From IMG/VR virus record IMGVR_UViG_3300005512_000004: a stretch of 64,000 bases of DNA. The stretch is one strand, 5' to 3'. The notes under the pieces were generated by a model that saw only the letters and a program-made list of their open reading frames with translations, had not been told where the DNA came from and ran no database searches. Made by a program: the position numbers and the translations under genes. Source of the stretch: an uncultured virus (IMG/VR IMGVR_UViG_3300005512_000004). Its lineage: Duplodnaviria; Heunggongvirae; Uroviricota; Caudoviricetes. Numbering within the stretch: position 1 is the stretch's first letter; every line of letters starts with the position of its first letter. This document shows, one piece after another, positions 16,440 to 49,463 of this stretch.

Positions 16440-18500
16440 ATGAGTAGACCTGCAGGCTATGGCGGAAAAGGCACGGTTTATCGTGCAGCATCAGGCAGTG
16501 ACGGTAGAGCGTTTAATGCGCCTAAGTACCCGCACCCTTTCTTCGACCAAGGACAAGCGTACTTACCTACCTCTGTCAAAAACTTGTTTCATTGGTGCAG
16601 GTTCTACTTTCTTACAAACCCCGCAGTAAACGCTGCCGTTACTAAAATGGCGGAGTACCCGATCACTCCGATTGTCTTTAAGACAGACAACCAAGATCTG
16701 CGCAACAAGTACACAAAGATCGTACGCATGCTTGATCTAAAGTCCTTCCGCGTTGAGGTCGGACTTGATTACTTTACGTACGGTAACGCATTCATAAGCG
16801 TTATGTTCCCTGTGCGCAAATTCCTTATATGCGCAGAGTGTAAAAAGACAAACGACATCAAGGCAAAGCGCACGAAATATAAGTGGGTCAACCAGCGGTA
16901 CAACCTCACATGTCCTCACTGCGGTCATGTCGGTTTCGCTAAAGTTCACGACCAATATCTCAAAAGCGTACGTGACATTAAGCTCATACGTTGGGATCCC
17001 GAGAGCATCGACATCAACTACGACGAGCTGACGGGAAACACAACCTACTACTACACCATCCCGACAAATGTGCAGAACGAGATACGTATGGGTAAGAAGT
17101 CTCGTGTAGAAGACTTACCCGACGTATTTATCCAGGCTGTGAAGAAGTCGAAGAAGCTCATGCTGAGCCCCGAGAACCTCTTCCACTTCCGCAGGCCGAC
17201 CTTAGCGCAGAAGAGTATGGGCTGGGGTACGCCGCTAATCATGCCTGTGCTGAAAGATCTACACTACCTCGGTGTGTTGCGTAGATCGCAGGAGGCCGTG
17301 GCGCAGGAGCACATTGTCCCACTCCGTATTGTCTTCCCACAGGCAGGCACAGCTACGTCTGACCCGTACTCCATGCTTAATCTACAAGAGTGGAAAGGTG
17401 AGGTTACGAAGCAGCTCTCGCAGTGGAAGCTCGACCCTAACCGCATACCTGTCATGCCTATGCCTATCGGGTATCAAACGATTGGCGGGAACGGCCGCGC
17501 GCTTATACTTCACCAAGAGTATCGCGTATGGATGGAGCACATCATTGCGGGTATGGGTGTGCCTCCCGAGTTTGTCTTCGGGGGAATTCAGTTCTCTGGG
17601 ACGAACCTGACAATGTTCCAGCTCCAGAATAAGTTCCTCGGCTATATCGAGGATCAACGCGACCTTGTGTTCTCGTTCATTCTCGGCAAGATCGCCGCCT
17701 TTATGGACTACCCCGATATTGACGGGGATTTCCGTCCCTTTAAGATGGCTGATGATCTACAGCGGACAATGATGTACCTCCAACTCGTACAGGGGCAGAA
17801 GCTCTCCGAGCGTACACTGCTCGAAGATCTCGGCTTCGATCCTGCAGTTGAGCGCGCTAAGATGGATGAGGAGCGCGGACATAATCTCGAGATGCAGCGC
17901 AAGACGCAGATACAGCAAGCTCACATGCAGGGTGATATCATGCAGGTGAATACGCGGTATCAAGGTTCCGCGCAGGTCGAGCAGGTACGCTCTCAGATGA
18001 AAGCTCAAGAGCTGCAACAGAAGCTTCAACAAGAGATGCAACAGAAGATGCAGCTAGAGCAGATGCAAGCGCAGCAGGCGCAGGTTAACCAGAGTGTCGC
18101 GTCGAATGGCGCGCTGCCTAATGGTGCGCAGACGGGTAGTGCTGTCGCACCCGGCTTCCCTGAGGGCGCAACAGCGTATAGTCGATCAGGGAAACAGCCT
18201 ATGCAGACCGGCGTCGCTCCGTGGACGCCCAGCACGGGTACAGGCAGTGCACCGGGCTCTAACCTAGATATGAGCTATGTAGCTAAAAGAGCGGCGGCCT
18301 ACGTGCGCGGCCTTCCGCAAGATCGCCAAACACAAGTACTTCAGACAATGGCGCAGAGCAACAAGCCTCTGCATGAGATGGTCGTTAATCTACTATCATC
18401 GAGGCAAGGAGATCAAAGCGATCCCACAAACCCTCTGACGAACCCAATGGCGCAACAAAAACCGGGACGCGCGACTCCCGGGCGCAAGATTGGCTACTAG
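16440..18500 (+). CDS. Portal protein with Zn-ribbon insertion and Gln-rich tail
   Basis: NPAVNAAVTKMAEYP, LFHFRRP....GWGTPLI, IIAGMGVPPEFV portal-type motifs; CAEC...CPHC insert. Confidence 0.8.
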   Translation: MSRPAGYGGKGTVYRAASGSDGRAFNAPKYPHPFFDQGQAYLPTSVKNLFHWCRFYFLTNPAVNAAVTKMAEYPITPIVFKTDNQDLRNKYTKIVRMLDLKSFRVEVGLDYFTYGNAFISVMFPVRKFLICAECKKTNDIKAKRTKYKWVNQRYNLTCPHCGHVGFAKVHDQYLKSVRDIKLIRWDPESIDINYDELTGNTTYYYTIPTNVQNEIRMGKKSRVEDLPDVFIQAVKKSKKLMLSPENLFHFRRPTLAQKSMGWGTPLIMPVLKDLHYLGVLRRSQEAVAQEHIVPLRIVFPQAGTATSDPYSMLNLQEWKGEVTKQLSQWKLDPNRIPVMPMPIGYQTIGGNGRALILHQEYRVWMEHIIAGMGVPPEFVFGGIQFSGTNLTMFQLQNKFLGYIEDQRDLVFSFILGKIAAFMDYPDIDGDFRPFKMADDLQRTMMYLQLVQGQKLSERTLLEDLGFDPAVERAKMDEERGHNLEMQRKTQIQQAHMQGDIMQVNTRYQGSAQVEQVRSQMKAQELQQKLQQEMQQKMQLEQMQAQQAQVNQSVASNGALPNGAQTGSAVAPGFPEGATAYSRSGKQPMQTGVAPWTPSTGTGSAPGSNLDMSYVAKRAAAYVRGLPQDRQTQVLQTMAQSNKPLHEMVVNLLSSRQGDQSDPTNPLTNPMAQQKPGRATPGRKIGY

Positions 18501-19238: not shown

Positions 19239-19401
19239 TGTGGGTTTTTTGTTCATGCTCGAAGCGTGTTCGAGCGTCTTCCATAGCGCGCTTCTGTTCT
19301 CTTTGTGCTTGATCAATGGTCCTCCCTAGTAGGTAGGCGAGAGAGCCTAGGAACCCTGTTACTGCAGATAGTAGAAAGACTTCCTTCTCGTGCTTATCCA
19401 C
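19219..19401 (-). CDS. Small membrane protein
   Basis: GAAAGGAG SD, GTG start, one hydrophobic helix. Confidence 0.55.
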   Translation of the reverse strand: MDKHEKEVFLLSAVTGFLGSLAYLLGRTIDQAQREQKRAMEDARTRFEHEQKTHNGGGDV

Positions 19402-19438
19402 GTTGCTCCTTTCCATGAACATGGTTGTGCGTTACAAC

Positions 19439-19449
19439 GTTTTATCACA
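19439..19449 (-). promoter_or_regulatory. Promoter-like motif TGTGATAAAAC
   Basis: 38 nt upstream of GTG 19401, the same spacing as at 14133. Confidence 0.55.
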
Positions 19450-19547
19450 CAGAGGACGCGTGTTATGACACCGCGTAAGCCCGATCTTTATACTTACCTT
19501 GCGAGGTGGTATGCTGAGATCCGCACGCGTTACTAGGAGAAATATAT

Positions 19548-22500
19548 ATGCCGACGTCTAGCTTTAACCCCGAAGAAGGATTTAGGGATCTAACCACGCA
19601 GCTCGCACAGAGCGCTAAAACGCTACTAACCGTAGAGACTGGGCATAGGAAGCTCGTAGTACGTGATGTATCTTTCGGGCAAGCGCAAGGTACGGCGTCG
19701 TCCTTCAAGCTTCAACGTGCGGTAAAAGAAGCGGGCGGTACCTATTCCATCCCGATGTACGCTACGTTAGAGCTACAAGATAAAAACGGTAAGAAGATCG
19801 ATAGCAAGAAGGTCACTGTCGCGCAGGTGCCTACGATTACGCAGCGACTTACGTACATACTTGGGGGACGTGAGTATCAGGTAACCTCGCAGTTTAGGCG
19901 TATGCCTGGCGTGTATACGCGTGTCTCCGATCGCGGGGAGGTGCAGGGCGTCATCGTGGGTGCTATGGGGGAGCGTTCTGGGCAGATCAAGATGGCTCTT
20001 GACCCTACGACGTACAACATCACAATCAAACCCGTAAAGGGCTCCGACCGCACACTCTCCGTTTACGACCTACTTCGCGCTGCAGACAAAACAGATCAAG
20101 AAATCGCGGCGAAGTGGGGTAAGGACATGGTAAACGCGAACAAGACGCTTAATAAGAGCGACGCGGCGCGTGACAATCAGGTGATCAACATCGCAAAGGC
20201 TATGATCGAGAACCCGTACGACCGCACGATCGAGGCGCCGTCAATCACGGATGGTAAGTCTGCCGCACAGTACATCTTCAGGCAGCTCAAGGTATGGACG
20301 ATGGATCCTCGTGTAACCAGCGATACGCTTGGCGCCGTACACTCTACGCTAACACCTGACGCTCTGCTCGCTACAGGACAGAAGATTCTTAATGTCAGTA
20401 GGGGCGTAGAGAAGCCGTCTACGTACAACAATATCGGCCACAAGCGCCTCTTATCTCCCGGTGACCTGCTTCGTGACTATCTTAACCGCAACAATAACGA
20501 GATTCAGCAGCAGCTTAAGAATCGTCTAACAAAGGACGCGAATGATGTTACGAAGATCGCACGTAACGTGCTCACGAAGCGCATCGTTATGTTCTTTCGG
20601 CAGGGGGGCGAGACGCAACTCGTAAGCGAAGCCGATATGACAAACCCGCTCGCTACGCTCATCGGGCACCGAATGACGACTGTCACTGGCGCGGGCGGTA
20701 TCAGTATGGGCCCCGGGATGCAGTTAGGAGACGCGCAACAGGCGCACAGCAGTCATATCGGTTTCCTAGACCCCGTGGATACAGGCGAGAAGGCGACTAC
20801 CGGTCTTCAGCTCTATATGAGTCTCGCTGCTGATAAGGCGGGAGACCGTCTGCACACGCGTCTCTACAGCTTAAAAGAGAAGAAGGTCGTACTTGTCGAT
20901 CCTCTTACTGCAGATAAGTCGGTCGTGGCCTTCCCAGATGATATTAAGTTTATCGGAGGACACCCCGTCGCGAAGTCGGCTCTCGTGAAAGCATCTTTCC
21001 CTGGCGGGGAGACGAAGAAGACGAAGCTGAGCTCGTGTGATTTTGTGATGACCGACGCACAGGGGAACTTCGCTTTGAACGCGAACATGATCCCCTTTTT
21101 GGACTGCAACAACGGTAACCGTGTGATGATCGGTTCTAAGATGGCGAACCAGGCAGTCTCGCTTGTCAACCGCGAAGAGCCTCTCGTGCAGGTCGAGGAC
21201 CCCGCTACGGGAAATACATTCGAAAAGAATGTGGGCGGCGTGTCCGCTCTCAGAGCGCGGACCGCGGGTACTGTGCTCCAAGTAACACGTGACGAGATCA
21301 TCATTAAGAGTCTTGAAGGAAACAAAGTCGTCCACGAGCTCTATAACGAGTTTCCTACAAATGACCCGAAGTCCATGCTCAATCACGAGCCTCTCGTGAA
21401 GGTGGGCCAGCTCGTCAAGAAAGGCGACGTACTCGCAGATAGTAATTACACAAGGAACGGTACTCTCGCGTTAGGTACGAATCTACGTGTAGGCTATCTG
21501 CCCATGCGCGGTTACAACTACGAAGACGGTGTGGTCATTAGCCGCAGCGCTTCAGAGAAGTTGAAGTCGCAGCACCTATATACGTTTAAGCGTGACTCTG
21601 CTGTACGCATCGGTACACGCTTAAACGCGAAGCTCGTTGATGGGCTCGAAGACAAGTCTGTCGTGATTGATAAAGAGTTCTACAAGGTGTGGGCGCCCCG
21701 TTCGGCCGCGACGTATAAGAACTTCAACGATCTAGACGCAGACGGGGTTATCAAGGAGGGTACGGAGATACATAAGGGGTACATCCTTATCGCGGCGTGC
21801 ATGCGTACCGATCACGACCCCGCCAAAGCCAGCTTAATGAAATCTACACGTATTAAGAGCTCGTGGCGCGGCGCAGAGATTGAGTGGGAGAAGGACAGCC
21901 CCGCTGTCGTGACACGCGTAGTAAAGCGCGCTAAAGAGGTCGCCGTCTACGTACGCTCGGAAGAGCCTATGAAGGTGGGCGATAAGCTCGTAGGGCGTTA
22001 CGGGAATAAAGGTATCGTTACGAAGGTGCTCGAGGATCACGAGATGCCTTACGCCGGTGAAGACGCTGAGGGTAACCGTAAGCATATTGAGGTCGCGATG
22101 CACCCTGCGGGTGTCCCTGGACGTATCAACGTAGGCCAGCTTATGGAGATGGGCGCGTCGAAGATCGCCGAGAAGACCGGTCAGCCCTATAAGGTAAAGA
22201 ACTTCGACTCAGACTCGAAGGACAAGATGCGTGAGCTTCTCGCAGAGCTTAAGCGCCACAAGCTCTCAGATCAGGAGCTTGTACTCGATCCCAAGACGGA
22301 CAAGCCTATCGGCTCCGTGATTATGGGCAAGCAGTATATTCAGAAGCTGACGCACCAGGTGGATAAAAAGATGGCGTCGCGGCCAGGCGGTATGCTTCCG
22401 GGCCACTCGGGGTTCTCGTACGACATCAATAACCAACCACGCTCGGGCGCACCTGCGGGCGGACAAGCGATGGGCGCGCTCGGTATCTATGCTCTCCTAG

Positions 22501-25500
22501 GACACAACGCACGTAGTATGTTGCGCGATTTGCAGACGCACCACAGTACGTACGAGCAGCCTGAGAAATACGGAGACTACGACTCAGACGACTATTGGAA
22601 TGCGCTCATGGAGGGCTTACCTCCTCCTAACGCGAAAGAAACGTTCGCGAGTCGTAAGTTTTTCGCACACTTAAAGGCGATGGGTGTCGACCCGGTAAAG
22701 AATGGGGACGACATTCAGCTCGTGCCTATGACAGATAAAGACGTGCTTAAGCAGTGTCCTCACCCTGTTAAGCGCCCCAACCGCATGATCATGGGCAAGG
22801 ACGCGAAGGTTGAGAAGGGCGGGCTCTTTGACTTCCCTGAGGGCGAGATTGCGAGTACACGTTGGGGGCATATCAAACTCGAGAAGCGTATCGTAAACCC
22901 TGTATTCGAGAAGCCCGCAGCGATCCTGCTAGGTATACCCGTAAGTAAGATCGCCGCAACATTTAAGTCGATGGGCATGGCGGAGATATGTAAGCGTCTC
23001 AAGGCGATGAACGTTGATCAAGAGCTCGCAGCAACGAAGAAGGCGATCGAGGGCGCGAAAAAGACCGAGCGTGATCTTTGCTACAGAAAGATTAAGCTGT
23101 TGAAGGTGCTCAAGAGGCTGAACCTTACGCCCTACGACGCGTATACTATGCAGTACATGCCGGTCTTACCGCCGCGCATGCGACCTATCTCGCTCTCTGG
23201 CGAGGTTGGCGCTATGGGCGACATCGATACGGCAGATATCAATCAGCTATATAAGCAAGTAGGTATCGCCAATGAGCTCGTGAACAGTCTCTCCAAAGAG
23301 GCGACTACATCAGATAAGAACGAGACGGACTACGCGCTCTACAGCGCTGTAAGAGATACGTATATCACGGGCGCGTTAGACAATAAGGGAGCACCCATGA
23401 ACTCCCTCTTGCAAGCCGCTGTTCAGCCCAAAGAGGGTGGCGGCGCAGGCAAGCACAAGCAGGCGAAGGAGGGCTTCTTCCAGAAGAAGCTGATTAAGCG
23501 CCGCTCTGAGCTGAGCGGTCGCTCCGTTATTACGCCCGAGCCCGACTTGAAGCTCGACCAGGTCGGTATTCCGCGCAAAATGGCGATGAACATTTACCGC
23601 CCCTTCATCGTGCGTCAGCTTAAGACGCAGGGCTATAACACGCTGCGCGCAGCAAAGATTCTTAAAGAAGATCCTACATCGCCTGCAGTGCGTGACGCGC
23701 TAGAGCGAGCTGTCGCTGATCGACCGCTGCTACTTAAACGTGACCCGTCGCTACATAAGCATAACGTTATGGCCTTTTACCCGAAGATCATAGAAGGCAA
23801 GTCCGTACAAATCCACCCGCTGGTCTGTGGCGGCTTTAACGCAGACTTTGACGGTGACACGATGGGCGCGTGGGTGCCTAGCTCAGACGAGGCGCTTCAA
23901 GAGGTAAAGAATATGGTGCCGAGCAAGAACCTGTTCGGGCCTAAGGGTTTCCAGCTCATGAACACACCTGAGTGGGGCGCGGCGTATGGCATCTGGCAGC
24001 TTACGGAGTGGGGTACGCCTACGAAGGTAAAGGTCGATTCTCCCGCAGAGGCTTACGCGCTCCACAAGAAGGGCGGGATCGACATAGCCGATATCATCAC
24101 GTACAAGGGACGTAAGACCACTGTCGGACGTATGATGCTCTTCGACAAGCTTCCTACCGAGTACAAGAACAATGATCTCGGGACGCAGGTGATGTATGGC
24201 GAAGAGCTCACAAAGAAGAAGATGACGACGTTGCTCACACGCATCGCGAAAGAGCGCCCCGATCTGTACCCAGGCATGGTGGACGATTGGAAAGACCTCG
24301 GGAATAAGTACGCGCACGAGAAGGCGTGGTCTTTCGGGCTGCAGGATTTTGTCTCACACGGCGATATCCGCGATAAGTACCTCGCAGAGGCCGACGCGAA
24401 GCTCGAGAAGATGAAAAACCCAAGCGCGGCAGATAAGGTACGTCTCTATGGTATCGCCGCGGGCAAGATCCGCAAAGAGGTCGAGGGTCGCTTGGCGAAA
24501 GACGGCAATAACCGCGCATATCGCATGACACGGCAGTCTGGCGCTATGGGCTCTAAATACAATCAGGTTGAGCAGATTATCATTAGTCCGTTACAGGTGA
24601 CGACGTCTGACGGGGACGTTGTACCGAATCCTGTGCGTAAAGCCTATAGCGAGGGGCTAGGGCTATCCGATTATTGGGACTCCATTCCCGGCGTGCGTAC
24701 AGGTACGCTCTCGCGTGTTAAAGGTACGAGCGACCCCGGCGCTAAGGCGAAAGATCTCGTTAATCTAAACATCAGCTCTGTTATATCGTCGGGTGACTGC
24801 GGCACAAATGCGGGCATCACGATCAAGACATCTGATGTTGATATGGAGGCACGCTTCCTACTTAAGCCTGTTACAGCGGGCACGAAGACGTATAGCCGTA
24901 ACACGCTAGTCGATGGTGAGGTTATGGCGCAGATACGGAAGCACCACGATACCATAGAAGTACGCTCGCCTATGGGATGTAAGGCAAGCAAGGGCGTCTG
25001 CGCTAAGTGTACGGGCTTTAACGAGCGAGGGAAGGAATACGAGATTGGCGAGAACGCGGGTGTTATTAGCGCTCAGTCTCTCTCAGAGCCCTTAACGCAG
25101 ATGGCGATGAACGCTTTCCACACTGGCGGCTCCGCGAGCGGCGCAGGCGCGTCTGTTGGCGACCACTTCTCGCACCTCGCGCGCCTCATGACCGTTCCCA
25201 AGGTGGTGCGCGGTTCTGCGAAGATTTCTCCCGCAGACACGACCGTAGTTTCCGTAATAGCAGATAAGCTCGTGGGCGGTTTTAATATCATGCTCCAAGG
25301 TGTCGATAAGCCTATCTATGTTGAGCAGGATAAGGAGGTTCTTGTCGCTAAAGGAGATACCGTTAAGAAGGGGCAGCGCTTAACTAACGGGCCGATCAAC
25401 CCACAAGAGCTTTTGCGCGTATCCGGCATGCCCGCGGTGCGACAACATATCGTAGACGAGATGCAGAAGGTGTACGGAGGTTACGGCGTACGACGTAGAC

Positions 25501-25859
25501 ACGTCGAGATGCTCGTAAAGAACCTCACATCTTCTGTGGAGGTGATCGAGGATCCCGAAGGAGATTACGCGCCAGGAGACCGCATCACCGAGCGCACGCT
25601 TCATGCAACAAATGCAGAACGTGTGGAGCAGAAGCTCCCTAAGATCGAAGCGGAGCCTGTGTTACTTAGTATTAATCAAGCAGTCCGCGTTGCTACCGAG
25701 GGAGATTTCCTCGCGCAGATGAACTACCAGCACGTGCGTACGAGTCTCCTAGACGGTATGGCTCACGGCGCTAAGTCGTCTCTGCATGGCCATAACCCCA
25801 TCCCCGGCATGGCCGTGGGCTATAGCCTCGGGAAGACCGGTAAGGAAGGTCAGTACTGA
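19548..25859 (+). CDS. rpoBC: Single-chain multisubunit-type RNA polymerase (beta-beta' fusion)
   Basis: beta motifs NRVMIGSKMANQA, GYNYEDG, GDKLVGRYGNKG, PGRINVGQ, KLTHQVDKK, GGQAMG; beta' motifs SGRSVI, LLKRDPSLH, FNADFDGD (23838-23858), AQSLSEPLTQMAMNAFHTGG. Confidence 0.97.
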   Translation: MPTSSFNPEEGFRDLTTQLAQSAKTLLTVETGHRKLVVRDVSFGQAQGTASSFKLQRAVKEAGGTYSIPMYATLELQDKNGKKIDSKKVTVAQVPTITQRLTYILGGREYQVTSQFRRMPGVYTRVSDRGEVQGVIVGAMGERSGQIKMALDPTTYNITIKPVKGSDRTLSVYDLLRAADKTDQEIAAKWGKDMVNANKTLNKSDAARDNQVINIAKAMIENPYDRTIEAPSITDGKSAAQYIFRQLKVWTMDPRVTSDTLGAVHSTLTPDALLATGQKILNVSRGVEKPSTYNNIGHKRLLSPGDLLRDYLNRNNNEIQQQLKNRLTKDANDVTKIARNVLTKRIVMFFRQGGETQLVSEADMTNPLATLIGHRMTTVTGAGGISMGPGMQLGDAQQAHSSHIGFLDPVDTGEKATTGLQLYMSLAADKAGDRLHTRLYSLKEKKVVLVDPLTADKSVVAFPDDIKFIGGHPVAKSALVKASFPGGETKKTKLSSCDFVMTDAQGNFALNANMIPFLDCNNGNRVMIGSKMANQAVSLVNREEPLVQVEDPATGNTFEKNVGGVSALRARTAGTVLQVTRDEIIIKSLEGNKVVHELYNEFPTNDPKSMLNHEPLVKVGQLVKKGDVLADSNYTRNGTLALGTNLRVGYLPMRGYNYEDGVVISRSASEKLKSQHLYTFKRDSAVRIGTRLNAKLVDGLEDKSVVIDKEFYKVWAPRSAATYKNFNDLDADGVIKEGTEIHKGYILIAACMRTDHDPAKASLMKSTRIKSSWRGAEIEWEKDSPAVVTRVVKRAKEVAVYVRSEEPMKVGDKLVGRYGNKGIVTKVLEDHEMPYAGEDAEGNRKHIEVAMHPAGVPGRINVGQLMEMGASKIAEKTGQPYKVKNFDSDSKDKMRELLAELKRHKLSDQELVLDPKTDKPIGSVIMGKQYIQKLTHQVDKKMASRPGGMLPGHSGFSYDINNQPRSGAPAGGQAMGALGIYALLGHNARSMLRDLQTHHSTYEQPEKYGDYDSDDYWNALMEGLPPPNAKETFASRKFFAHLKAMGVDPVKNGDDIQLVPMTDKDVLKQCPHPVKRPNRMIMGKDAKVEKGGLFDFPEGEIASTRWGHIKLEKRIVNPVFEKPAAILLGIPVSKIAATFKSMGMAEICKRLKAMNVDQELAATKKAIEGAKKTERDLCYRKIKLLKVLKRLNLTPYDAYTMQYMPVLPPRMRPISLSGEVGAMGDIDTADINQLYKQVGIANELVNSLSKEATTSDKNETDYALYSAVRDTYITGALDNKGAPMNSLLQAAVQPKEGGGAGKHKQAKEGFFQKKLIKRRSELSGRSVITPEPDLKLDQVGIPRKMAMNIYRPFIVRQLKTQGYNTLRAAKILKEDPTSPAVRDALERAVADRPLLLKRDPSLHKHNVMAFYPKIIEGKSVQIHPLVCGGFNADFDGDTMGAWVPSSDEALQEVKNMVPSKNLFGPKGFQLMNTPEWGAAYGIWQLTEWGTPTKVKVDSPAEAYALHKKGGIDIADIITYKGRKTTVGRMMLFDKLPTEYKNNDLGTQVMYGEELTKKKMTTLLTRIAKERPDLYPGMVDDWKDLGNKYAHEKAWSFGLQDFVSHGDIRDKYLAEADAKLEKMKNPSAADKVRLYGIAAGKIRKEVEGRLAKDGNNRAYRMTRQSGAMGSKYNQVEQIIISPLQVTTSDGDVVPNPVRKAYSEGLGLSDYWDSIPGVRTGTLSRVKGTSDPGAKAKDLVNLNISSVISSGDCGTNAGITIKTSDVDMEARFLLKPVTAGTKTYSRNTLVDGEVMAQIRKHHDTIEVRSPMGCKASKGVCAKCTGFNERGKEYEIGENAGVISAQSLSEPLTQMAMNAFHTGGSASGAGASVGDHFSHLARLMTVPKVVRGSAKISPADTTVVSVIADKLVGGFNIMLQGVDKPIYVEQDKEVLVAKGDTVKKGQRLTNGPINPQELLRVSGMPAVRQHIVDEMQKVYGGYGVRRRHVEMLVKNLTSSVEVIEDPEGDYAPGDRITERTLHATNAERVEQKLPKIEAEPVLLSINQAVRVATEGDFLAQMNYQHVRTSLLDGMAHGAKSSLHGHNPIPGMAVGYSLGKTGKEGQY

Positions 25860-27133
25860 TGGTCGCTTTTACAGGAGATGTTACGGCGAAGCCGCCGCGT
25901 ATCTTTACGGGTAACGTCTTCGAGATATACCCCGAGTTGGGCGCGGTTGATATCAAGGTAGGGTTTCCTGATAGCCGCTTCTACGAGAAGGTACCGTACG
26001 CCTCTGCCTTTAAGGATAAAGGGCTCGCGGGGTTTGACTTCGTGCCTACGCGCGGGTGTACGGTGCTGTTGCTCGAACACGGCTCCGAAGACTCAGGGGG
26101 CGAAACTTCAGCGCCCATCGTTATCGGCTTTATGGCGCCTCCTGGTAAGTCCATTGGTGCGCGACGCGAGCTCCTGCCGAGCGACGTACAGGTGAGCGGC
26201 AAGTACGGTAACAACTTACTCCTACGGAGCAACGGAGACGCGTACCTCGTAGGGGATGCGCGTAACCTCATTGCGTTTATTACGACGGAGGAGTTAACAA
26301 AGCTCCGTACTACAAACTTCGAGCACGAACATCCCGGTGGGCGAGTCAGGTGGATGATTGACGGGGAAGCGCAAGGAGGCGCGGTCGCGTACCTACACAC
26401 CGTTAAGCGGAATATGGCAGACGACGCGCCGTACCTTTCCGTCTCTGCAGGTACAGATGCTGCGGGTGGGCTAGAGATACGCATGGCGGGTGAGGGCGGT
26501 GAGGTGCCTAACTCCGCGAACCCCATCTTCGTGAATGACGTGCCTGTTGGGTGTGCGTTCAAGCTAGGTGTTGATATGCTCGGCAATGTGGGAGTGAGCG
26601 CCACGGGCGCTGTCGTTGCTGAAAGTATCGGCCCAATGACGCTTAAGAGCGCGTCAGGTATTAGTCTCGCTGCGCCACAGATCGCGTTCACGTCTGTTGT
26701 AGGCGGTATCAGTATAACCAGCGTACCTGGTCAGCCTACGCGCCTCGTACTACCCGACGGGCTAGAGATCGTCGCACCACATATTAAGATTACGCAGGGC
26801 ACGACTCACCTGCTCTCTAGCAGCGAAGAAGAAGGGCACTCGAAGAAACTCCTGACGGAGGAGCTGTTCGATTGGGTCGTTAATCATCGACATATGCACT
26901 ACGTGATTCCTAACCCTACCCAGACAGGCTCGACGCATGGACTAACGACCAAGCCGTTGAACGCTAGTGCGCTTGCTACGGATACATTGTATACTAGCAT
27001 AGCTCAGCTACAGGCGACTGACGTGGTAGCGTCTATACCAGGGGCGCAGTTTATTGAGACGATCCTAGCAGCGGAGAGCCAATACACCGCCGACGAGACA
27101 ACCGCGATAACACAAGAAACGAAAGCGAGGTAA
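25859..27133 (+). CDS. Baseplate central spike (gpV/gp5/VgrG-like)
   Basis: N-terminal OB-fold pattern (GNVFEI...VP..G..VLL...PIVIGF), beta-repeat body, NHRH metal-binding motif near the C-terminus. Confidence 0.65.
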   Translation: MVAFTGDVTAKPPRIFTGNVFEIYPELGAVDIKVGFPDSRFYEKVPYASAFKDKGLAGFDFVPTRGCTVLLLEHGSEDSGGETSAPIVIGFMAPPGKSIGARRELLPSDVQVSGKYGNNLLLRSNGDAYLVGDARNLIAFITTEELTKLRTTNFEHEHPGGRVRWMIDGEAQGGAVAYLHTVKRNMADDAPYLSVSAGTDAAGGLEIRMAGEGGEVPNSANPIFVNDVPVGCAFKLGVDMLGNVGVSATGAVVAESIGPMTLKSASGISLAAPQIAFTSVVGGISITSVPGQPTRLVLPDGLEIVAPHIKITQGTTHLLSSSEEEGHSKKLLTEELFDWVVNHRHMHYVIPNPTQTGSTHGLTTKPLNASALATDTLYTSIAQLQATDVVASIPGAQFIETILAAESQYTADETTAITQETKAR

Positions 27134-27135: not shown

Positions 27136-29562
27136 ATGTACAGCGAGCCACTATTTATAGAGAGAGCAAGTTCCTTCGAGAAGATCGCGGTTACTGTAAA
27201 GTTGCCGAATGACGAGACAAAGTGGGCGCCTATGGTGCTCTCTGAGCTCCATCGCCAAGCACCTATGATGCGCGATTTCCACTCAGAGATTACACTCGAC
27301 CGCACGGACCCGAATAAGGGGATAGGGTTCGGGTACATCTCTTGTCGACCTAAGACAGCAAACCCGCTCGCAGCGGGAGGTCTTCCAAGCATTAAGATTC
27401 CGGTCTTCGTGAAGAATTGGCATCTCTCACCGATCGATGTGTTCTTCGACGCGGCTGGGCGCGGGTACCACCTCTCTGAGCGACGCATACGTGAGGTGCT
27501 CGCGCGTCCACAGGTAGGCGCGGGTGCGGCCGACCCATCTGATCCCGTATCTGGAGACATCCGTACGATGCTTACGCCTCCTTGGGAGAACGTGGGGCAG
27601 TTCTATCGTGGCGTAAACACAGCTGTATCACAGAACGCGCAGGTAAAGACCTCGTCACTCCTACGTGTGATTGACGGTACGGTGGCGGCAGAGGACATCG
27701 CCAAGCTCGCAAGTTGGGTAAGCTCCGACGAAGGCCGCATGATGATGTGGGGCCAGCACGACATTATCCCTACGTTCAGCAAGGCGTTAAAGCTTACTGC
27801 GGGTGAGCCTTTAGGCGGGGAGAAGATCGCGGAGTACGTCGGTTCACCCGTCGTACAGTATCGTTGGGATGGTGGCCCTACCATGCTTGTTAAAGTAGCG
27901 CAGCCCGGTGGCTTCGCTCCGCAGCAGGGGCAAGTACCCGCAGATCAAGCAGCCCAGCAGATGGACCCAAATGCGCAGGCTCAGGTCGCGCAACAAGGTC
28001 AAGCGACGCAGGCAGATCAGATGCAGGTCATGTCTCCCGAGGAGATGGACGGTGACGACTTCCAGCCCGTAAGTCAGTTCGGCATTTACCGTGTTATTAC
28101 TGTAAATAACGAGCAGCTCATGGGTTGGGTCTTCCCGTTCATCTTGTCCTTTAAGATGGAGAAGGTGCCGCAGCAGATTTTTACGGACGGCTCGAACTTT
28201 GCGACACAACAAGCGATAGCGGGTGTACACGTCGCTACCAACTCCAATCTGCCGAACGAGCAACCACAGGGTCGTGGGTTCTTCTACATTATCCGCAACG
28301 GCCGTGCCTTTGCGTTTGCACCAATCGACCTACAGGGCGAGCAGCAACAGCCCGATGGCAACACGATGTACATGGCGCAGACGATTCTCGGAGGCAATCA
28401 AGTACAGATCATGAAGATACAGGGTATGAACGCTGCTGCCGAGATGGGAGAGAACCAGTTCGCGCTTCCGGGCGACGTCAAATGGTGCTCATTCAAACAG
28501 CAAACTAACCCGCTTATCGAAGATCCCATGCAGGCAGGCCAGCGTGCTGGGGCGTACACACTGCAGAAGATTCAGCAGAAGGCGCTTATGCAACAACAAG
28601 CGCAGGAAGCGGAGGCTCAGAAGGGGCAGAAGGGGCAGAAGGGGCAGAAGAAGACCGCAGCTTTTAAGCGAGAGATGCTCGCCGCGACAGGTGCAGCGAG
28701 TTTGATGCCGCTAGGCGCTACCTACATGGCGCGAAAAAGGCTCAAAAAAGAGGGGTACAGCGCAGAAGATGCGAGGAGCATCACGGGCGGTTACGCGCGA
28801 AATGCTGTGCAGGGCTTAACGCAGGGCGCTATCGGGATGGGGCTCGCGGGGCACGTCGGTGGAGGAGATAAGACCAAAGCTATCTCTGCGCTCACGGGCG
28901 GTGGTGCGAGAGCCGCGCAGATCATGCAAGACACCAACAAGTTCGTATTAGAGGACCGTGCACGTAAACGGTACATGGATCTTATGAGCAAGCAGTCAAG
29001 CGCACCCATCACCGCGGTGATTCGGGCTACCCAAGATAACACGTACACGCTATCAGGTACCGCCTTTGAGAAGCTGGCAAGCGAGCACACGCACTTCTTA
29101 GACTATGCGGACACCGAGTGGATGCTCGCGCTCGCAGGTATCGCGCCAGAGTATACACGTGAGAAGGTCGCGACAATCCACACGCTACATCGTGGGCGCG
29201 TAGAGATACCCGTGCTGCGTCCTGTGACACCCCCGCAGACCACCATTGTGAAGACCGCGGCTCTCGAGAAGGTGTGCTCTAAGCTCTCCCGCATGATGGC
29301 CAAGCACGCTAATGAGCTCCGTGACCCTAACATCGCGGACACCTTACTTGCTCTTAACTTCCTTAACCCACGCAACGTCAGTATGTTCATCAACTACATT
29401 CCGTTGATCGAGGAGACAACGTCGAGTATCGCTAACCTGCTCGTCGCTTCACGTCTCGGCGAGCGCTCGCTCGACGAGGGTGCGTGTAAGGAGGCGTTGC
29501 GCAATCTCGAAGACGTTCTTGCCGGGCTTAAGATGCTCGCCATGACACGCGAGAGTGTGTAA
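27136..29562 (+). CDS. Large putative internal head protein with many KxA/KxS motifs
   Basis: EKIAV, VKTSS, AKLAS, EKIAE, KKTAA, SKQSS, EKLAS, EKVAT, VKTAA; Gln-rich segments. Confidence 0.6.
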   Translation: MYSEPLFIERASSFEKIAVTVKLPNDETKWAPMVLSELHRQAPMMRDFHSEITLDRTDPNKGIGFGYISCRPKTANPLAAGGLPSIKIPVFVKNWHLSPIDVFFDAAGRGYHLSERRIREVLARPQVGAGAADPSDPVSGDIRTMLTPPWENVGQFYRGVNTAVSQNAQVKTSSLLRVIDGTVAAEDIAKLASWVSSDEGRMMMWGQHDIIPTFSKALKLTAGEPLGGEKIAEYVGSPVVQYRWDGGPTMLVKVAQPGGFAPQQGQVPADQAAQQMDPNAQAQVAQQGQATQADQMQVMSPEEMDGDDFQPVSQFGIYRVITVNNEQLMGWVFPFILSFKMEKVPQQIFTDGSNFATQQAIAGVHVATNSNLPNEQPQGRGFFYIIRNGRAFAFAPIDLQGEQQQPDGNTMYMAQTILGGNQVQIMKIQGMNAAAEMGENQFALPGDVKWCSFKQQTNPLIEDPMQAGQRAGAYTLQKIQQKALMQQQAQEAEAQKGQKGQKGQKKTAAFKREMLAATGAASLMPLGATYMARKRLKKEGYSAEDARSITGGYARNAVQGLTQGAIGMGLAGHVGGGDKTKAISALTGGGARAAQIMQDTNKFVLEDRARKRYMDLMSKQSSAPITAVIRATQDNTYTLSGTAFEKLASEHTHFLDYADTEWMLALAGIAPEYTREKVATIHTLHRGRVEIPVLRPVTPPQTTIVKTAALEKVCSKLSRMMAKHANELRDPNIADTLLALNFLNPRNVSMFINYIPLIEETTSSIANLLVASRLGERSLDEGACKEALRNLEDVLAGLKMLAMTRESV
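28618..28650 (+). repeat. 9-bp tandem repeat CAGAAGGGG x3.7 (QKG) immediately before KKTAA
   Basis: Seen directly. Confidence 0.85.
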
Positions 29563-31158: not shown

Positions 31159-31494
31159 TTATGACGTAATCTCGCTCTTTTTTGCGCTTTCGTCTTCATG
31201 TATATACGCGGGCTTTCTGAGCGTCTTTTGGTACACGGTGATAGAGATCTCGTGCTCGAGCGACACACGCCCTATGAGCATGTCACGCGCTCGCGCCTCC
31301 TGCTTGAGTCCTTTACGTATCTGCGGGTGGAGAGCCTTGTGTATCGCTTCTCTCATCGGGCACTTTATGATAAAGCTGAGGGGGTCCGCTGGTTGAGAAA
31401 TAACGATCTCTTCGGTATCGCACACATCGAAGGCGACGAGGTTGATCATTCTAATAAGGTGTGTTGCGACGGAGATGCGGTCTATGCCTGTCAT
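31159..31494 (-). CDS. Hypothetical protein
   Basis: 111 aa ORF filling the gap before the terminase. Confidence 0.5.
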   Translation of the reverse strand: MTGIDRISVATHLIRMINLVAFDVCDTEEIVISQPADPLSFIIKCPMREAIHKALHPQIRKGLKQEARARDMLIGRVSLEHEISITVYQKTLRKPAYIHEDESAKKSEITS

Positions 31495-31573
31495 AAAGAA
31501 TACCCCAAGAAATCAGAAGGTGGTCACGCAGATACAATCCACGAGACCTTACCACGATGCGGAGTCCGTAGAT

Positions 31574-33229
31574 ATGGAGTTGCTAGGTCTTGATGGCTAC
31601 GCTACGGGGGAAGTAGAGGTCGCCTCGACAGATCAGGTGGAGATACGTCCTACGGATTTCGTAGAGTTCGCGATCTGTATCCCTGACCAACACACGAAAC
31701 AGCTACTTCCTTTCAGCTTCGACGAGCGTCGTTACCTCAAGCCTGTCTACAACACGACATCGCCGCGTGTACTTCTTAAGTGTGGCCGTCAGGTAGAGAA
31801 GTCCACGTATCTAGGGAACCGTCTACTCGCGCTCACCTGTATCCAACCTAGCCTGACGTCGCTGTATGTGAGCCCTACGAACCAGCAGACTAAGACATTC
31901 TCCAATGACCGTATTTCAGAGCCACTAGGTATCAGTCCGCGATTGCGTGCATGGACTGACCCGCACCTGCAGCAGAACGTCTTCCACAAGAAGTTTATCA
32001 ACCGCTCCCAGATCGTACTGCGTTACGCGTACTTAAACGCCGACCGTGTGCGCGGTATTCCTGCCGACCTCGTCTGTATAGACGAGATACAAGATATACA
32101 CACAGACAACATCCCTGTTATCGAAGAGTGCATCGCGCACAGCTCGTTTAAGTTCAAGCTCTACTCCGGTACGCCTAAGTCACTCGATAATACGATCGAG
32201 GGCTTATGGATAGATGAGAGTACGCAGAACGAGTGGGTTGTTCCGTGCGACCACTGCGGTGGGGGAGACGTGAGGCACTGGAACATACTCGACGAGTCGA
32301 ACATCGGCCCCAAGTACCTCGTGTGCGACAAGTGCCACAAGCAGATACACGCGATGCACGACGACGCGCAGTGGGCAAGCATGAATCCCAATCCGCGAGT
32401 ACCGAACCCTATGGATGGTTATCGCGTACCGCAGCTCATGGTGCCGTGGATCGCGTGGAACGATATTCTCAACAAGCAGCTCACCTACAGCCGTGGTAAG
32501 TTCCATAACGAGGTACTCGGGCTGTCATACGACAGCGGTACGCGCCCGCTGACTCGACAAGACATCATGGATAACTGCACGTCTCCTTATCGTATAGGCG
32601 ACCCTGCAGGTATGCGGGTGGCGCACGGATCTGGGACGCGTATCTTTATGGGCATTGACTGGGGCACGGGCGAGCAGACGTACACGACGGTCACGATCTG
32701 CGGCTACCTTAACCAGAAGTTTACGCTCCTATACATACGTCGCTTTGAGGGTCAAGAGAGTGAGCCCGTCGTACAGTTGGCGAAGATCAAGGAGCTTGTC
32801 GCGCAGTGGCACGTGTCCTTTATCGGAGCTGACTATGGTGGTGGTTTCGATAGAAACGATGACCTGCTGAGGACATTCGGGCCACGTAAGGTGTTTAAAT
32901 ACCAATACTCCACGGTCACGTCCGCCAAGATCAAGTGGGATGGCGGGCTCGCGCGCTTTATGCTCAACCGCACCGAGGTGATGTCGGATGTGTTTAACGC
33001 GATTAAGCGTCGAGACGTCTTCGCGTTCCCTTCGTGGGAGCAATTCGAGGTACCTTACGGGCAAGACTTCCTTAACATCTTCTCGGAGTACTCAGAGAAT
33101 CGTAGGATGAACGAGTACAAAAAGAGCCGCGGTGTTACGGACGACTCTTACCACGCGCTGCTATACGCTTTTGTCGTAAGCCAGATTACGAACCCTCGCC
33201 CCGACGTCTTCAGCCCAATACAGTCGTAA
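31574..33229 (+). CDS. terL: Terminase large subunit (lambda gpA-like, with Zn ribbon)
   Basis: KCGRQVEKST Walker A, CIDEIQD Walker B, SGTP, CDHC...CDKC, nuclease GIDWG / ADYG / DDSYHA; start uncertain (ORF open from 31442). Confidence 0.9.
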   Translation: MELLGLDGYATGEVEVASTDQVEIRPTDFVEFAICIPDQHTKQLLPFSFDERRYLKPVYNTTSPRVLLKCGRQVEKSTYLGNRLLALTCIQPSLTSLYVSPTNQQTKTFSNDRISEPLGISPRLRAWTDPHLQQNVFHKKFINRSQIVLRYAYLNADRVRGIPADLVCIDEIQDIHTDNIPVIEECIAHSSFKFKLYSGTPKSLDNTIEGLWIDESTQNEWVVPCDHCGGGDVRHWNILDESNIGPKYLVCDKCHKQIHAMHDDAQWASMNPNPRVPNPMDGYRVPQLMVPWIAWNDILNKQLTYSRGKFHNEVLGLSYDSGTRPLTRQDIMDNCTSPYRIGDPAGMRVAHGSGTRIFMGIDWGTGEQTYTTVTICGYLNQKFTLLYIRRFEGQESEPVVQLAKIKELVAQWHVSFIGADYGGGFDRNDDLLRTFGPRKVFKYQYSTVTSAKIKWDGGLARFMLNRTEVMSDVFNAIKRRDVFAFPSWEQFEVPYGQDFLNIFSEYSENRRMNEYKKSRGVTDDSYHALLYAFVVSQITNPRPDVFSPIQS

Positions 33230-41213: not shown

Positions 41214-42362
41214 ATGTCATATTCAGCAGAGATGGTAAACAGTTTATTTGTCGAGAAGCTCGGTACCGAGGAGGGTCGTCAGAAGATCGCCGCTTACGGT
41301 GGCGGTGTCATTCGTGACCACCTCCGCGAGGTTAGCTTTGCGCGCAAGGTGCTTCCTCCTATGCCCGTCACTCCCGCAGAGTGCCAGGTGAGCACTGAGC
41401 ACGACGGCCTCGTGAAGATCGAGGAGCTCGAGCCCGAATCACGCGCGATGGTCGTCGACTTCCGCGGCTCAAGCCGCGCTCGCTACATCCGCGCGCCCCG
41501 CGTCGCGGTTAGCTTCTTCACCATCGAGTCCGAGCACTTCGAGAAGACCGAGCAGGAGCTGCTCGCGTACAAGATGCCGATCACCAAGATGATCGAGGAG
41601 CAGTCCGCGAACAACCTCCAGGAGATCGAGGATCGTCAGTTCCTCATCTACGCTGAGGCGGGCATCCAGCAAGTGCAGAAGGACGCGAACACCACGCACG
41701 CGTCTCACGGCAAGTTCAACGCTTCTGAGATCAACGCGAGTAACGTCGCATACGGTCCCGACCAAAATGCTTCTGTGATGAAGGGCCAACTCGCTCTTAC
41801 CGCGGGCGCTGACGACTTTGTGGTGCGTCCTGTTAACCGCCCCGACTTCGTTAACTTCTTCAAGATGATGGCAGGCCCTGATCGTCGTCTCCGTCTCGAC
41901 CTCGTCCTCCTCACCGAGCCTGACTACGACGACATCCTTCAGTGGACCGTCGAGGACATGGGTGATCGTATCCAGAGCGAGACCGTTGTTGACGGCTACA
42001 AGTACAACACTCTCTTGGGTCGTCGCTTTATCCGCACCATCAAGACGGACATTCTCCGTCGCGGTAACATCTACGGCTTCGCGGCACCTCAGTTCCTCGG
42101 CTGCTTCTACGTGCTCAACAACACCAAGTTCTACGTCGACAAGGTCGGCAACAAGATCACCTTCTGGTGTTGGGAGGACATCGGTATGGCGTTCTTGAAC
42201 CTCAACTCGTTGATCAAGATGGAGCTCTACTCGGGCTCAGTCACTCCGGGCTTCGAGGATGCTGGTCATACGATTCGTCTCCCCGCGGACGAGGAGGACT
42301 TGGGCCGTGCACGTAACCGTGCGGATGACGGCTTCCAGAGCCCCATCGTGACTCAGTTCTAA
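41214..42362 (+). CDS. Major capsid protein (HK97-type)
   Basis: 382 aa; strongest C/G-ending codon bias in the window; position after protease, scaffold and decoration genes; IRDHLREVSFARKVLP, LQEIEDRQF. Confidence 0.75.
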   Translation: MSYSAEMVNSLFVEKLGTEEGRQKIAAYGGGVIRDHLREVSFARKVLPPMPVTPAECQVSTEHDGLVKIEELEPESRAMVVDFRGSSRARYIRAPRVAVSFFTIESEHFEKTEQELLAYKMPITKMIEEQSANNLQEIEDRQFLIYAEAGIQQVQKDANTTHASHGKFNASEINASNVAYGPDQNASVMKGQLALTAGADDFVVRPVNRPDFVNFFKMMAGPDRRLRLDLVLLTEPDYDDILQWTVEDMGDRIQSETVVDGYKYNTLLGRRFIRTIKTDILRRGNIYGFAAPQFLGCFYVLNNTKFYVDKVGNKITFWCWEDIGMAFLNLNSLIKMELYSGSVTPGFEDAGHTIRLPADEEDLGRARNRADDGFQSPIVTQF

Positions 42363-49000: not shown

Positions 49001-49463
49001 TGCACAAGAACCATTGACACGTGTGCCAATGGTCGGCTTCAACGACTCAATCGGGCCAGCGCTTACGCGTACTCAGCTCAATACGATCTCCGCGGGTAAC
49101 GCTGTTATCGAGCCAGAGTCTGAAGGCGCGAATCCCTCTCTCCGTATGCAGGGTAGCACCGACCCCTCTACGATCGAGAGCCGTGAGTGGAGCGTAACAC
49201 GCGCGGTAGACGCGTTCTCTAAGACGCTCCGTACGCAGCTCAAGTCTAGGATCGGACGCTTTAACATTACGCAAGCGTATATCGATGAGCTCTCCATGCT
49301 CGTCGACAGCATGTGTAAGGCGTCCGTGGATCAAGGACAGTTCCGTGGGGCTGACGTTCTTAAGCTCGAGCAAGACGTGACACAGCCCGATACCATTCTT
49401 GTAGAGATCCAGCTCGAGGTTCTCTACCCAGCTAACTACATCAACGTCACCCTGGTTGTCTAA
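46038..49463 (+). CDS. Contractile tail sheath protein (large, with inserted domains)
   Basis: N-terminal KPGVNITQ; C-terminal sheath domain (SVTRAVD...IGRFNI...DTILVEIQLEVLYPANYINVTL). Confidence 0.88.
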   Translation: MVDQIRKPGVNITQVIGGTPPTPVTATLVPCIVGPAFEVVELTGDDGTASVESQVQTAQGPLLYRQLPIHLDVSDYPAPRADANQMSVLVPEVQVALQRTGEFNILDRSPGTAFLKGANEATRPGIWISTAQLEQSRAATFIVLVDTDINNNAASFVVNNNAASVEDLLENITSTVTGTGYFAHTLDGVPGFVLHSTRYGATASISLVSVSGGATSNAFFDAAGLAALQYGGNNITKIRCEGGGFYAEDNVNPTILTSPIVRFTPGKGVVVVDGNVSDTLDVGENSLIGGKAFVTVQVDMHGNVDASFPSGTFDFINDLPLRAATPRSMGDTFTAGGPIGQSISRVMVTEVQNDYIKLGVVNSSRSIFDAEGNPTRLVFSDFQLGTLKNPVPFAPKNAYFIAHSLTEFSPETPQGTALPATLEGDPVSASLATAPQVILTGWDETDANQVASTNTLAFQLALTINGVTETMRVPFINDDAAANIALWAGNVFDGKIVASYAGTTFTFESVVKGADVHLALEDIDTGLTVAVEDDFGTDDEIVGLAGDTLTFFLNDGPTEYSFTAASTSIPLFVNMVNDKMGYEALTYSTDSAVNEATFTLTSYLLGVASKVSPLTTSTGAVTLGLNGIPVVGSGRPNPDVWVRRDGSVVISGDIMRNTITGTPVAASTSARVHLAYRALRLDLTPSASAPGIIRVSSVDTLAEVFGPISPRNPFALAIYYALLNTGDGIEINAIGVDDVSEAEPDGTVLAYASAAEFLRSYEVYSIVPLTHNENVIALFDNHVKDMSAPDLRAERTVITAPANPTRHNDTVVLSTGESGAESTGIDNQVDLNDSPEAVLNSLGVDTSAEIPFQLADLTQLYVHITIGDASYKYSVSHVSGGRVTIRTMYTSAQNSDGFYSTNALPSEFVNAEFSLALRGAPLTIASTGLLDKTAYAETVREAAQQYLNRRQIRLYPDTVQSDAIGGINQRIPSYYFAAALAGMVGNIDAQEPLTRVPMVGFNDSIGPALTRTQLNTISAGNAVIEPESEGANPSLRMQGSTDPSTIESREWSVTRAVDAFSKTLRTQLKSRIGRFNITQAYIDELSMLVDSMCKASVDQGQFRGADVLKLEQDVTQPDTILVEIQLEVLYPANYINVTLVV

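Follow-up and report, generated by a model that had tools for sequence, protein, structure and literature searches.

Cellular-type RNA polymerases (RNAPs) are thought to require a platform formed by an alpha dimer to join the large subunits beta and beta'. Both large subunits are found in one polypeptide (RpoBC) in Helicobacter, and Wolbachia also has a fused RpoBC. That fusions of the large RNAP subunits recur is stated in general terms in the accessible text of two published accounts (PMC7281927, PMC10770324), and the accessible text of a jumbo-phage review mentions such fusions only in general terms (PMC7598289). The uncultured tailed phages known as mReC carry beta and beta' that readily align to cellular homologs and fall outside the cellular clades; Supplementary file 5 of that study gives separate beta and beta' proteins of 887 to 1521 amino acids (aa) in each of the 90 "Metagenomic phage" rows examined, and the word "sigma" is absent from its main text (Weinheimer and Aylward 2020, PMC7481178). 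In Salmonella phage Arash ("Arashvirus"), the proteins gp206 and gp216 are annotated as beta and beta' subunits, and neither "fused" nor "fusion" appears in the main text (PMC10585845). Here, we describe a gene from an uncultured tailed phage (IMG/VR record IMGVR_UViG_3300005512_000004) whose single product is a beta-beta' polymerase of the cellular (bacterial) type; the whole stretch of DNA analyzed, 64,000 nucleotides long, is referred to as the window. In the literature searched, which had subscription journals and bioRxiv supplements outside its scope, we found no description of a fused, sigma-associated family of this type, and the family appears to be more widespread than that literature suggests.

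A bacterial-type polymerase core in one reading frame

The polymerase gene is a single open reading frame (ORF) without internal stops (Table 1). A preliminary description, made from the sequence without database searches, had placed the catalytic motif sets of beta and beta' together in one 2103-aa ORF; the polymerase is real and was correctly read, as the intact frame, Pfam domains, collinearity with bacterial subunits, and motif coordinates confirm. Three Pfam RNAP domains all exceed their cutoffs: Rpb2_6 (PF00562, the beta catalytic domain; residues 574 to 948, E = 3.9e-50), Rpb1_2 (PF00623, beta'; residues 1319 to 1457, E = 2.7e-31), and Rpb1_5 (PF04998, beta'; residues 1703 to 2000, E = 3.5e-23). 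Among the sequences of PDB chains, there were 203 distinct matches at E <= 0.001, of which the best 60 were all bacterial beta', the top one at E = 1.6e-94. In phmmer comparisons with Salmonella beta, residues 63 to 133, 267 to 670, 796 to 896, and 873 to 998 corresponded to beta 89 to 165, 419 to 824, 1048 to 1143, and 1172 to 1293. Collinearly after beta, residues 1141 to 1894 and 1929 to 2082 corresponded to Salmonella beta' 179 to 974 and 1194 to 1347. The Salmonella reference subunits were taken from a bacterial contig filed among phage records.

The chain is 25% identical to the Salmonella subunits over 1945 aligned columns (MAFFT, 53 sequences). In an alignment of 33 full-length family sequences, residues D1433, D1435, G1436, and D1437 of the NADFDGD motif are invariant, as are the zinc-site cysteines C1751, C1811, C1818, and C1821 (33/33). 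Relative to Salmonella, MAFFT gaps show that beta segments 228 to 309, 324 to 358, 947 to 1048, and 1130 to 1183 are missing, together with beta' segments 67 to 97 (the four-cysteine zinc ribbon), 153 to 180, 945 to 1132, and 1363 to 1407. We take the first two beta gaps and the large beta' gap to be the Escherichia coli lineage-specific insertions SI1, SI2, and SI3. No conserved cysteine was found at the site of the N-terminal zinc ribbon among the 33 aligned family sequences. The impression that the chain is compact was also borne out, as 2103 aa compares with 2262 to 2992 aa (median, 2699) for 53 complete bacterial beta-plus-beta' pairs.

An AlphaFold2 model of residues 860 to 1500, made with 55 aligned relatives, folds confidently (mean predicted local distance difference test score [pLDDT], 85.4; predicted template modeling score, 0.79) and has an ordered junction between the two modules. 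Foldseek matched this model best to bacterial beta' chains, in their N-terminal halves (E = 1e-27; probability, 1.0; template modeling score, about 0.57). Two long clamp helices are present in the model with block-mean pLDDT values of about 89 to 97. In bacteria, the clamp helices are the principal docking site of sigma region 2.

The junction lies where the preliminary description had put it, near positions 22690 to 22710, and has essentially no linker, because only Salmonella beta 1339 to 1342 and beta' 1 to 15 are unmatched there in the MAFFT alignment. The last beta helix passes directly into the first beta' elements, and the model renders this stretch as a helix, a beta-hairpin, and a helix with block-mean pLDDT values of 87 to 97. 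Residue P1060 at the junction is invariant in 33/33 family sequences. The fused protein of Helicobacter rodentium has approximately 25 extra residues at the corresponding place and keeps its zinc ribbon.

Distribution of the fused family

Four IMG/VR loci with 50 to 65% identity have the same frame; two of them encode proteins of 2140 and 2096 aa, and the other two run off contig ends. In a collection of 5.8 billion clusters, 3378 proteins had E <= 1e-10 among 8000 candidates scored, and the best 120 of these 3378 comprise 98 proteins of 1900 to 2200 aa, 18 longer, and 4 shorter. The junction itself was tested with a 1200-aa junction-centered query against 1.84 billion cluster representatives at 50% identity, which returned 13,159 proteins at E <= 0.001 and 2503 at E <= 1e-30. 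At least 1900 aa were present in 142 of the best 150 representatives (60 of 1900 to 2200 aa and 82 longer, up to 4739 aa); the remaining 8 had 1114 to 1892 aa. A scan of IMG/VR with the family alignment confirmed at least 610 of 693 candidate stretches, and the gene is one stop-free frame of 1900 to 2250 aa at 58 of the 73 loci retained. A search for shorter proteins covering the junction region returned 16, of which 7 have both beta and beta' Pfam domains; two of the shorter proteins that were aligned (P0129 and P0131) are also continuous across the junction. The frame is unbroken over the junction in all full-length relatives examined, and the family was found across many environments.

Many family members are longer, at 2400 to 4739 aa (for example, P0043, P0055, P0059, P0081, P0098 to P0102, and P0212), and the longer proteins bear intein or homing-endonuclease domains (PF14528, PF14890, PF05204, PF03161, and PF07591). 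The polymerase gene is a hot spot of selfish insertion.

A blastn search of the polymerase gene against 50,697 phage records gave no match. At the protein level, the best matches in the phage collection were Vibrio phages D69, D181, and D148 (28.5 to 29% identity over 84 to 89% of the query) and Arash (30.8% identity), and only the records of Vibrio phages D69, D148, and D181 reached at least 80% query coverage in one place. In the split relatives Arash and D69, the break is inside beta', near query residue 1530 and away from the subunit boundary. Several other records of the phage collection (among H5 to H11 and H14 to H17) carry ordinary bacterial rpoB-rpoC next to ribosomal protein genes and are bacterial DNA filed as phage; they include "Acinetobacter phage MD-2021a," a contig of Salmonella houtenae, and a Staphylococcus record marked as unverified.

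A sigma factor gene, but neither alpha nor omega, in complete relatives

The preliminary description recognized no alpha, omega, or sigma gene in the window. This stands for the window, as no domain of the three was found in its 58 other ORFs (58 examined with PHROGs and 52 with Pfam; the six outside the Pfam scan have confident PHROGs names), but it does not stand for the family, since a sigma70-family gene is present elsewhere in the genome in all complete relatives. These are 13 IMG/VR genomes with the polymerase gene, of 183 to 210 kb and with CheckV completeness of 99 to 100%, 6 of which have terminal repeats. With the Pfam sigma models, region 2 was above the cutoff in 1/13 and region 4 in 2/13. 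The weak sigma ORFs are similar to each other and to Arash gp10 (BLASTP, 1e-20 to 1e-70), and a profile made from five sigma-like ORFs found one such gene in 13/13 complete relatives, at E values from 4.5e-40 to 8.3e-122; the phage sigma family was recognizable only after a profile had been built from the weak Pfam hits. A profile of the 13 members matched regions 2 to 4 of SigB, SigA, RpoS, and RpoD in PDB (E = 1.2e-14), and Pfam Sigma70_r3 matches 10 of the 13. Tens of kilobases separate it from the polymerase gene in these relatives. The system is therefore more complete than could be told from the window, because the relatives carry their own sigma.

Neither alpha (PF01000) nor omega (PF01192) was found in any of the 13 complete relatives, whereas 14 of 14 control genomes were positive. 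PF00623 was found in exactly one frame per genome in all 13, with frames of 2056 to 3259 aa. In place of the bacterial arrangement, in which two large subunits are held on an alpha dimer with omega, these 13 genomes encode one chain and no alpha or omega.

Phylogenetic placement and origin of the fusion

We built two unrooted trees. The first has 53 rows (29 bacteria, 20 family members, Arash, D69, Cobetia phage Carin-5, and Yersinia phage vB_Yru_GN1) and 1766 columns and was made with MAFFT FFT-NS-2, LG+G4, a short search, and the Shimodaira-Hasegawa-like approximate likelihood ratio test (SH-aLRT). The second has 34 rows (18 bacteria) and 570 fully occupied columns and was made with LG+C20+F+G4 by posterior mean site frequencies. 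Of the comparison proposed in the preliminary description, the trees cover bacterial RNAPs and, among phages, those of the family, Arash, D69, Carin-5, and GN1.

In the first tree, the 29 bacteria are on one side of a branch with an SH-aLRT of 100, and the 20 family members form a clade with Arash and D69 (100). The second tree retains the split separating the 18 bacteria (85) and the family clade (100). Nesting inside a bacterial RpoBC clade, the placement that the preliminary description had singled out as contrary to its reading, is seen in neither tree. Fused RpoBC in Helicobacter, named there as a precedent, was encountered in H. rodentium (L016, 2883 aa), which groups with Aliarcobacter inside the bacteria in both trees; in the second, Campylobacterota are deep within Gracilicutes-type phyla (99). 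Because the Helicobacter fused RpoBC sits inside Campylobacterota, the phage and Helicobacter fusions are independent in origin. The second tree also puts Arash and D69 inside the fused family, with weak support (82), which hints that their split may be secondary. In both trees, Carin-5 and GN1 occupy a long branch of their own.

The order of beta and then beta' in the phage chain is the same as in the bacterial operon, and fused forms exist in bacteria (L016), so that one could picture the recent capture of a host rpoBC like that of Helicobacter or Wolbachia or of an rpoB-rpoC operon that was fused later. However, the bacteria keep to one side of a branch under both the simpler and the site-heterogeneous model, with the Helicobacter protein placed beside Aliarcobacter, and the Helicobacter protein has a linker and a zinc ribbon where the phage chain has neither. 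A scan of 185,579 species genomes, in which at least 600 stretches matched peptide patterns, likewise speaks against capture: among 600 of these stretches, the best 80 loci are only 26 to 32% identical, and all are ordinary bacterial rpoB-rpoC, including the fused gene of H. rodentium, with no family member among them. On the trees, the low identity, and the missing linker and zinc ribbon, we reject recent capture as highly improbable. An assembly or frameshift artifact, or a dead gene, is more remote still and was rejected as next to impossible, given that the identical continuous frame recurs in hundreds of independent assemblies and that the catalytic residues are invariant. The fusion is not an assembly artifact.

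Proposed function and alternative explanations

We propose that the fused chain, in which beta and beta' are one polypeptide, would serve a phage-encoded multisubunit RNAP of bacterial type as its catalytic core. It retains the catalytic parts (both double-psi barrels, NADFDGD, the bridge helix, the trigger loop, and the second zinc site) as well as the sigma-docking clamp helices. What it has shed are the insertions specific to bacterial lineages, the zinc ribbon at the beta' N terminus, and, at the junction, the ends of both chains. The chain is predicted to be enzymatically active. Taken as a whole, a sigma-dependent, alpha- and omega-independent single-chain core, possibly packaged, is the probable reading. 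A phage sigma70-family factor of the Arash gp10 family, encoded outside the window, would direct the core to phage promoters; going by the sigma genes of the relatives, this is likely. The covalent link would stand in for the alpha dimer and omega as an assembly aid, a role that we favor modestly because the relatives encode neither. Since the complete genomes of the relatives carry their own sigma in addition to the fused core, two proteins may be all that these phages need for transcription.

Further, the polymerase would be made together with the structural genes and packaged in the virion with sigma, which would allow early phage transcription without the host enzyme. This step seems close to evenly balanced, perhaps tilting slightly in favor, and is suggested by the position of the gene in the structural block and by the Arash particle proteome. 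In 13/13 complete relatives, a portal homolog precedes the polymerase gene by 0.7 to 5.5 kb in the same orientation, and the arrangement is alike in Arash and D69. According to the accessible text on Arash, virion proteomics detected gp206, which comprises beta and the N-terminal part of beta', more than any other protein (3516 spectra, above the capsid protein), and gp216 and the sigma-like gp10 were detected as well (PMC10585845).

Several points weigh against this proposal. The sigma claim rests on relatives that are 32 to 37% identical, because no sigma gene is in the window, where a gp10-type sigma profile run on all frames of the 64 kb found none (best E, 0.23 with filters off). The absence of alpha and omega was judged by one Pfam model apiece, and a very divergent second polymerase would evade PF00623; T7-type RNAP (PF00940) was found in 0/13 complete relatives, which says little because no control genome matched. 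With the beta' zinc ribbon lost, initiation could differ from the bacterial scheme. A host alpha dimer could also still serve, perhaps with omega, in assembling the fused chain, much as the Helicobacter fused enzyme uses an alpha dimer. Borrowing from the host would look just like the observed lack of alpha and omega in the phage genomes, and the core is plainly bacterial in type; even so, the chain has only 25% identity to bacterial subunits, the C-terminal tail of beta' (1363 to 1407) is absent, and the spread of the family over many environments, and presumably over many hosts, makes it less likely that docking to differing host alphas would be conserved. We consider dependence on host alpha to be rather unlikely.

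The enzyme may instead stay outside the virion. The polymerase gene would then be among the early genes transcribed by the host RNAP, middle or late genes would pass to the fused enzyme and its sigma, and the Arash signal would be carry-over of a protein abundant during infection. Carry-over is possible because the Arash particle preparation held 116 of 252 proteins, including metabolic enzymes such as ribonucleotide reductases and RNA ligases, and the authors themselves allow for it in the accessible text (PMC10585845). The single polymerase frame in each of the 13 genomes also fits this scenario, as opposed to the pairs of virion and nonvirion enzymes described for phiKZ-like phages (PMC7598289). 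Yet the spectra of gp206 outnumber those of the major capsid protein (PMC10585845), and in 13/13 relatives the gene is flanked by the portal gene and by structural-type genes of the same strand. A nonvirion role is thus unlikely, if quite conceivable, and we retain the packaged, sigma-directed core as the preferred reading with the strengths given above.

If this reading is true, the fused chain would be the smallest known sigma-dependent polymerase of the multisubunit type: natural, abundant, covalently joined, and used with a conventional sigma. It would offer a simple system for structural and single-molecule studies of initiation, a candidate orthogonal two-gene transcription module, and, because it aligns well, a marker with which a major group of large phages could be positioned with respect to Bacteria. 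More tentatively, we may be looking at a widespread and undescribed lineage of myoviruses of 180 to 210 kb that would carry a packaged two-gene machine, would be independent of the host from the first minute, and might conceivably date from before or near the bacterial radiation, given that it branches outside all sampled bacterial phyla; the trees, being unrooted, carry no claim about age.

Candidate promoter element and rifampicin pocket

The divergent intergenic region before the polymerase gene contains the heptamer TTATCAC. Across the window there are 9 occurrences versus 5.3 expected, and thus no overall enrichment, but 6 of the 9 are in the 16 intergenic gaps of at least 35 bp, which together make up 2579 bp (4% of the window). 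These six begin at 14136, 19442, 52201, 53408, and 62315 on the plus strand and 62395 on the minus strand and are often preceded by T/A-rich bases. Five of them are oriented toward the next gene, including the one 100 nucleotides upstream of the polymerase gene, and the heptamer is also upstream of the polymerase gene in 4/4 close relatives (L003 to L006). TTATCAC was picked out by eye and is presented as no more than a lead to a candidate phage promoter element.

Opposite Salmonella beta 507 to 534, the phage sequence is strongly diverged, with Q513 replaced by S, H526 by G, and S531 by T. Beta 513, 526, and 531 are classic sites of rifampicin resistance, and because these positions differ, the fused polymerase is predicted to be insensitive to rifampicin.

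Genomic context

The window belongs to a myovirus-like phage (Table 1), and its plus-strand structural block also holds a protease-like domain. The ORF with the tail-sheath C terminus would be unusually long for a sheath protein. Homologs of the 424-aa ORF are just downstream of the polymerase gene in 6/13 complete relatives; its language-model look-alikes point to Phage_base_V (score, 0.96; 21% and 58% of the members of two clusters), so that it is possibly a baseplate-hub-like protein, although this is no more than a lead. In 13/13 complete relatives, a homolog of the 808-aa ORF follows the polymerase gene in the same orientation at a distance of up to about 9 kb; the ORF had no match in Pfam, PHROGs, or Atlas. 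In three of the complete relatives (G007, G011, and G013), the portal homologs are frames of 1104 to 1136 aa that match in two parts, which suggests an inserted element, perhaps an intein.

Toward the end of the window (56584 to 61012), a 1021-aa ORF with a NUDIX domain (E = 1.3e-21) and weak P-loop domains is followed downstream by a 281-aa ORF with an adenylate/guanylate cyclase domain (E = 2.4e-5) and then by a 158-aa ORF with weak matches to the membrane-protein families SLATT_fungal and Yip1; this cluster could be a nucleotide-signaling or counter-defense module. At 53439 to 55545, a PAP2-family phosphatase domain, a KTSC-domain protein with a glycine zipper, and a thymidylate-synthase-like gene are found in a row and could be related to nucleotide or DNA modification.

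Table 1. Features of the polymerase gene and its surroundings in the window
Feature	Position	Strand	Remarks
Fused beta-beta' RNAP core	19548..25859	+	Single ATG-start ORF, 2103 aa, no internal stop
Beta-like module	19548..22691	+	Residues 1-1048; MANQAV 532-537; GRYGNKG 816-822 (beta lysine motif, aligned with Salmonella GRHGNKG); GGQAMGALGIYALLGH 971-986
Beta/beta' junction	22659..22733	+	FFAHLKAMGVD (22659-22691) C-terminal beta helix, beta-hairpin, first beta' helix; DDIQLVPMT at 22707-22733; residues ~1048-1054
Replaced N-terminal beta' zinc ribbon	22818..22871	+	Short loop GGLFDFPEGEIASTRWGH; 31-aa alignment gap, Salmonella beta' 67-97
Clamp helices (coiled coil)	23229..23384	+	Residues ~1228-1279; aligned with beta' ~262-309; two helices in model
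Catalytic Mg-binding motif NADFDGD	23838..23858	+	Residues 1431-1437
Bridge-helix region and trigger loop	24669..25130	+	Residues 1708-1727 and 1846-1861 (trigger-loop motif located); motif and alignment; no SI3 insertion
Second zinc site	24795..25010	+	C1751, C1811, C1818, C1821; DCGT 1750-1753 and C-x6-C-x2-C 1811-1821, aligned with Salmonella beta' DCGT...C-x6-C-x2-C
Divergent intergenic region	19317..19547	.	231 bp; TTATCAC 19442-19448; AGGAG ribosome-binding site just before ATG
Replication genes	2.6-13.3 kb	-	DNA polymerase, primase, DnaB-like helicase, Cas4-like nuclease, RusA
Portal protein gene	16440..18500	+	686 aa; 31% identity to Arash gp204 and D69 0259
424-aa ORF	25859..27133	+	Start overlaps polymerase stop codon; fast-evolving
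808-aa ORF	27136..29562	+	Conserved downstream of polymerase gene
Large terminase	31442-33229	+	Matches Arash gp1
Candidate capsid protein	41214-42362	+	Weak major-head match (PHROGs)
ORF with tail-sheath C terminus	46038-49463	+	1141 aa; tail-sheath PHROGs match confined to last ~170 residues

Comparison with known systems

The bacterial RNAP core, as known for example from structures of E. coli or Salmonella, Bacillus, and Streptomyces enzymes, shares with the phage chain its collinearity, fold, catalytic motifs, second zinc site, clamp helices, bridge helix, and trigger loop. The phage version differs in being one chain with 25% identity, without the N-terminal zinc ribbon or SI1, SI2, and SI3, and with shortened ends. 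The Helicobacter fused RpoBC also joins beta and beta' in the same order, but it is an ordinary Campylobacterota enzyme with a linker and an intact zinc ribbon and is 780 aa longer than the phage chain. In phages Carin-5 (L092) and GN1 (L093), by comparison, sigma, beta' (~1085 aa), and beta (~925 aa) are separate genes, and beta' precedes beta, the reverse of the bacterial order; the sigma gene is annotated in Carin-5, and an ORF of ~200 aa is at the equivalent position in GN1.

To our knowledge, the RNAPs of phiKZ and AR9 are very divergent and have no sigma70-type factor. As described in the accessible text of the jumbo-phage review, these enzymes are beta/beta' relatives that lack alpha and omega, with one enzyme of each pair packaged in the virion (PMC7598289). 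They consist of four or five polypeptides, with two enzymes per phage, whereas the family described here has one chain and one gene per genome. The crAss-like virion RNAP, YonO, and P23-45 gp64/gp96 have both barrels in one polypeptide, and some are delivered by the virion (PMC10770324); they are reported to have almost no sequence similarity to beta/beta'. The fused phage chain, in contrast, matches bacterial beta' at E = 1.6e-94 and has the full bacterial domain set.

The preliminary description supposed that the class was probably already known, citing the uncultured tailed phages of Weinheimer and Aylward 2020. As far as the 90 rows of Supplementary file 5 extend, it is not that family, and the sample numbers of the related IMG/VR loci do not appear in that file (PMC7481178). 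The mReC contigs have capsid PF07068 and terminase PF03237 where these are present (PMC7481178); in the window, the candidate capsid protein has no PF07068 match up to E = 1, and the large terminase has PF05876 as its best family, with PF03237 at 16 bits versus a cutoff of 22.

Among cultured phages, those closest to the window are Arash and Vibrio phages D69, D148, and D181, with roughly 30% identity. Vibrio phages D69, D148, and D181 (OZ195729, OZ196545, and OZ196140) have the order of portal and then polymerase found in the window. Their polymerase proteins are all annotated as hypothetical; that of D69 is split into 1527 and 609 aa, and those of D148 and D181 are further interrupted by a homing endonuclease gene. 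Arash gp206 and gp216 are homologous to the fused chain, with 31% identity over residues 29 to 1532 and 29% over 1525 to 2010. Arash resembles the window in its covalent beta/beta' junction, a portal gene just upstream, and homologous portal and large terminase proteins; it differs in that its chain is cut within beta' into 1525 and 606 aa encoded nine genes apart. Its sigma-like gp10 is of the same family as that in the 13 complete relatives, so that of the Arash-like module the covalent junction and upstream portal are present in the window and the gp10-type sigma is found in 13/13 complete relatives and not in the window. With Arash and the Vibrio phages as cultured relatives, the predictions made here are within direct experimental reach.

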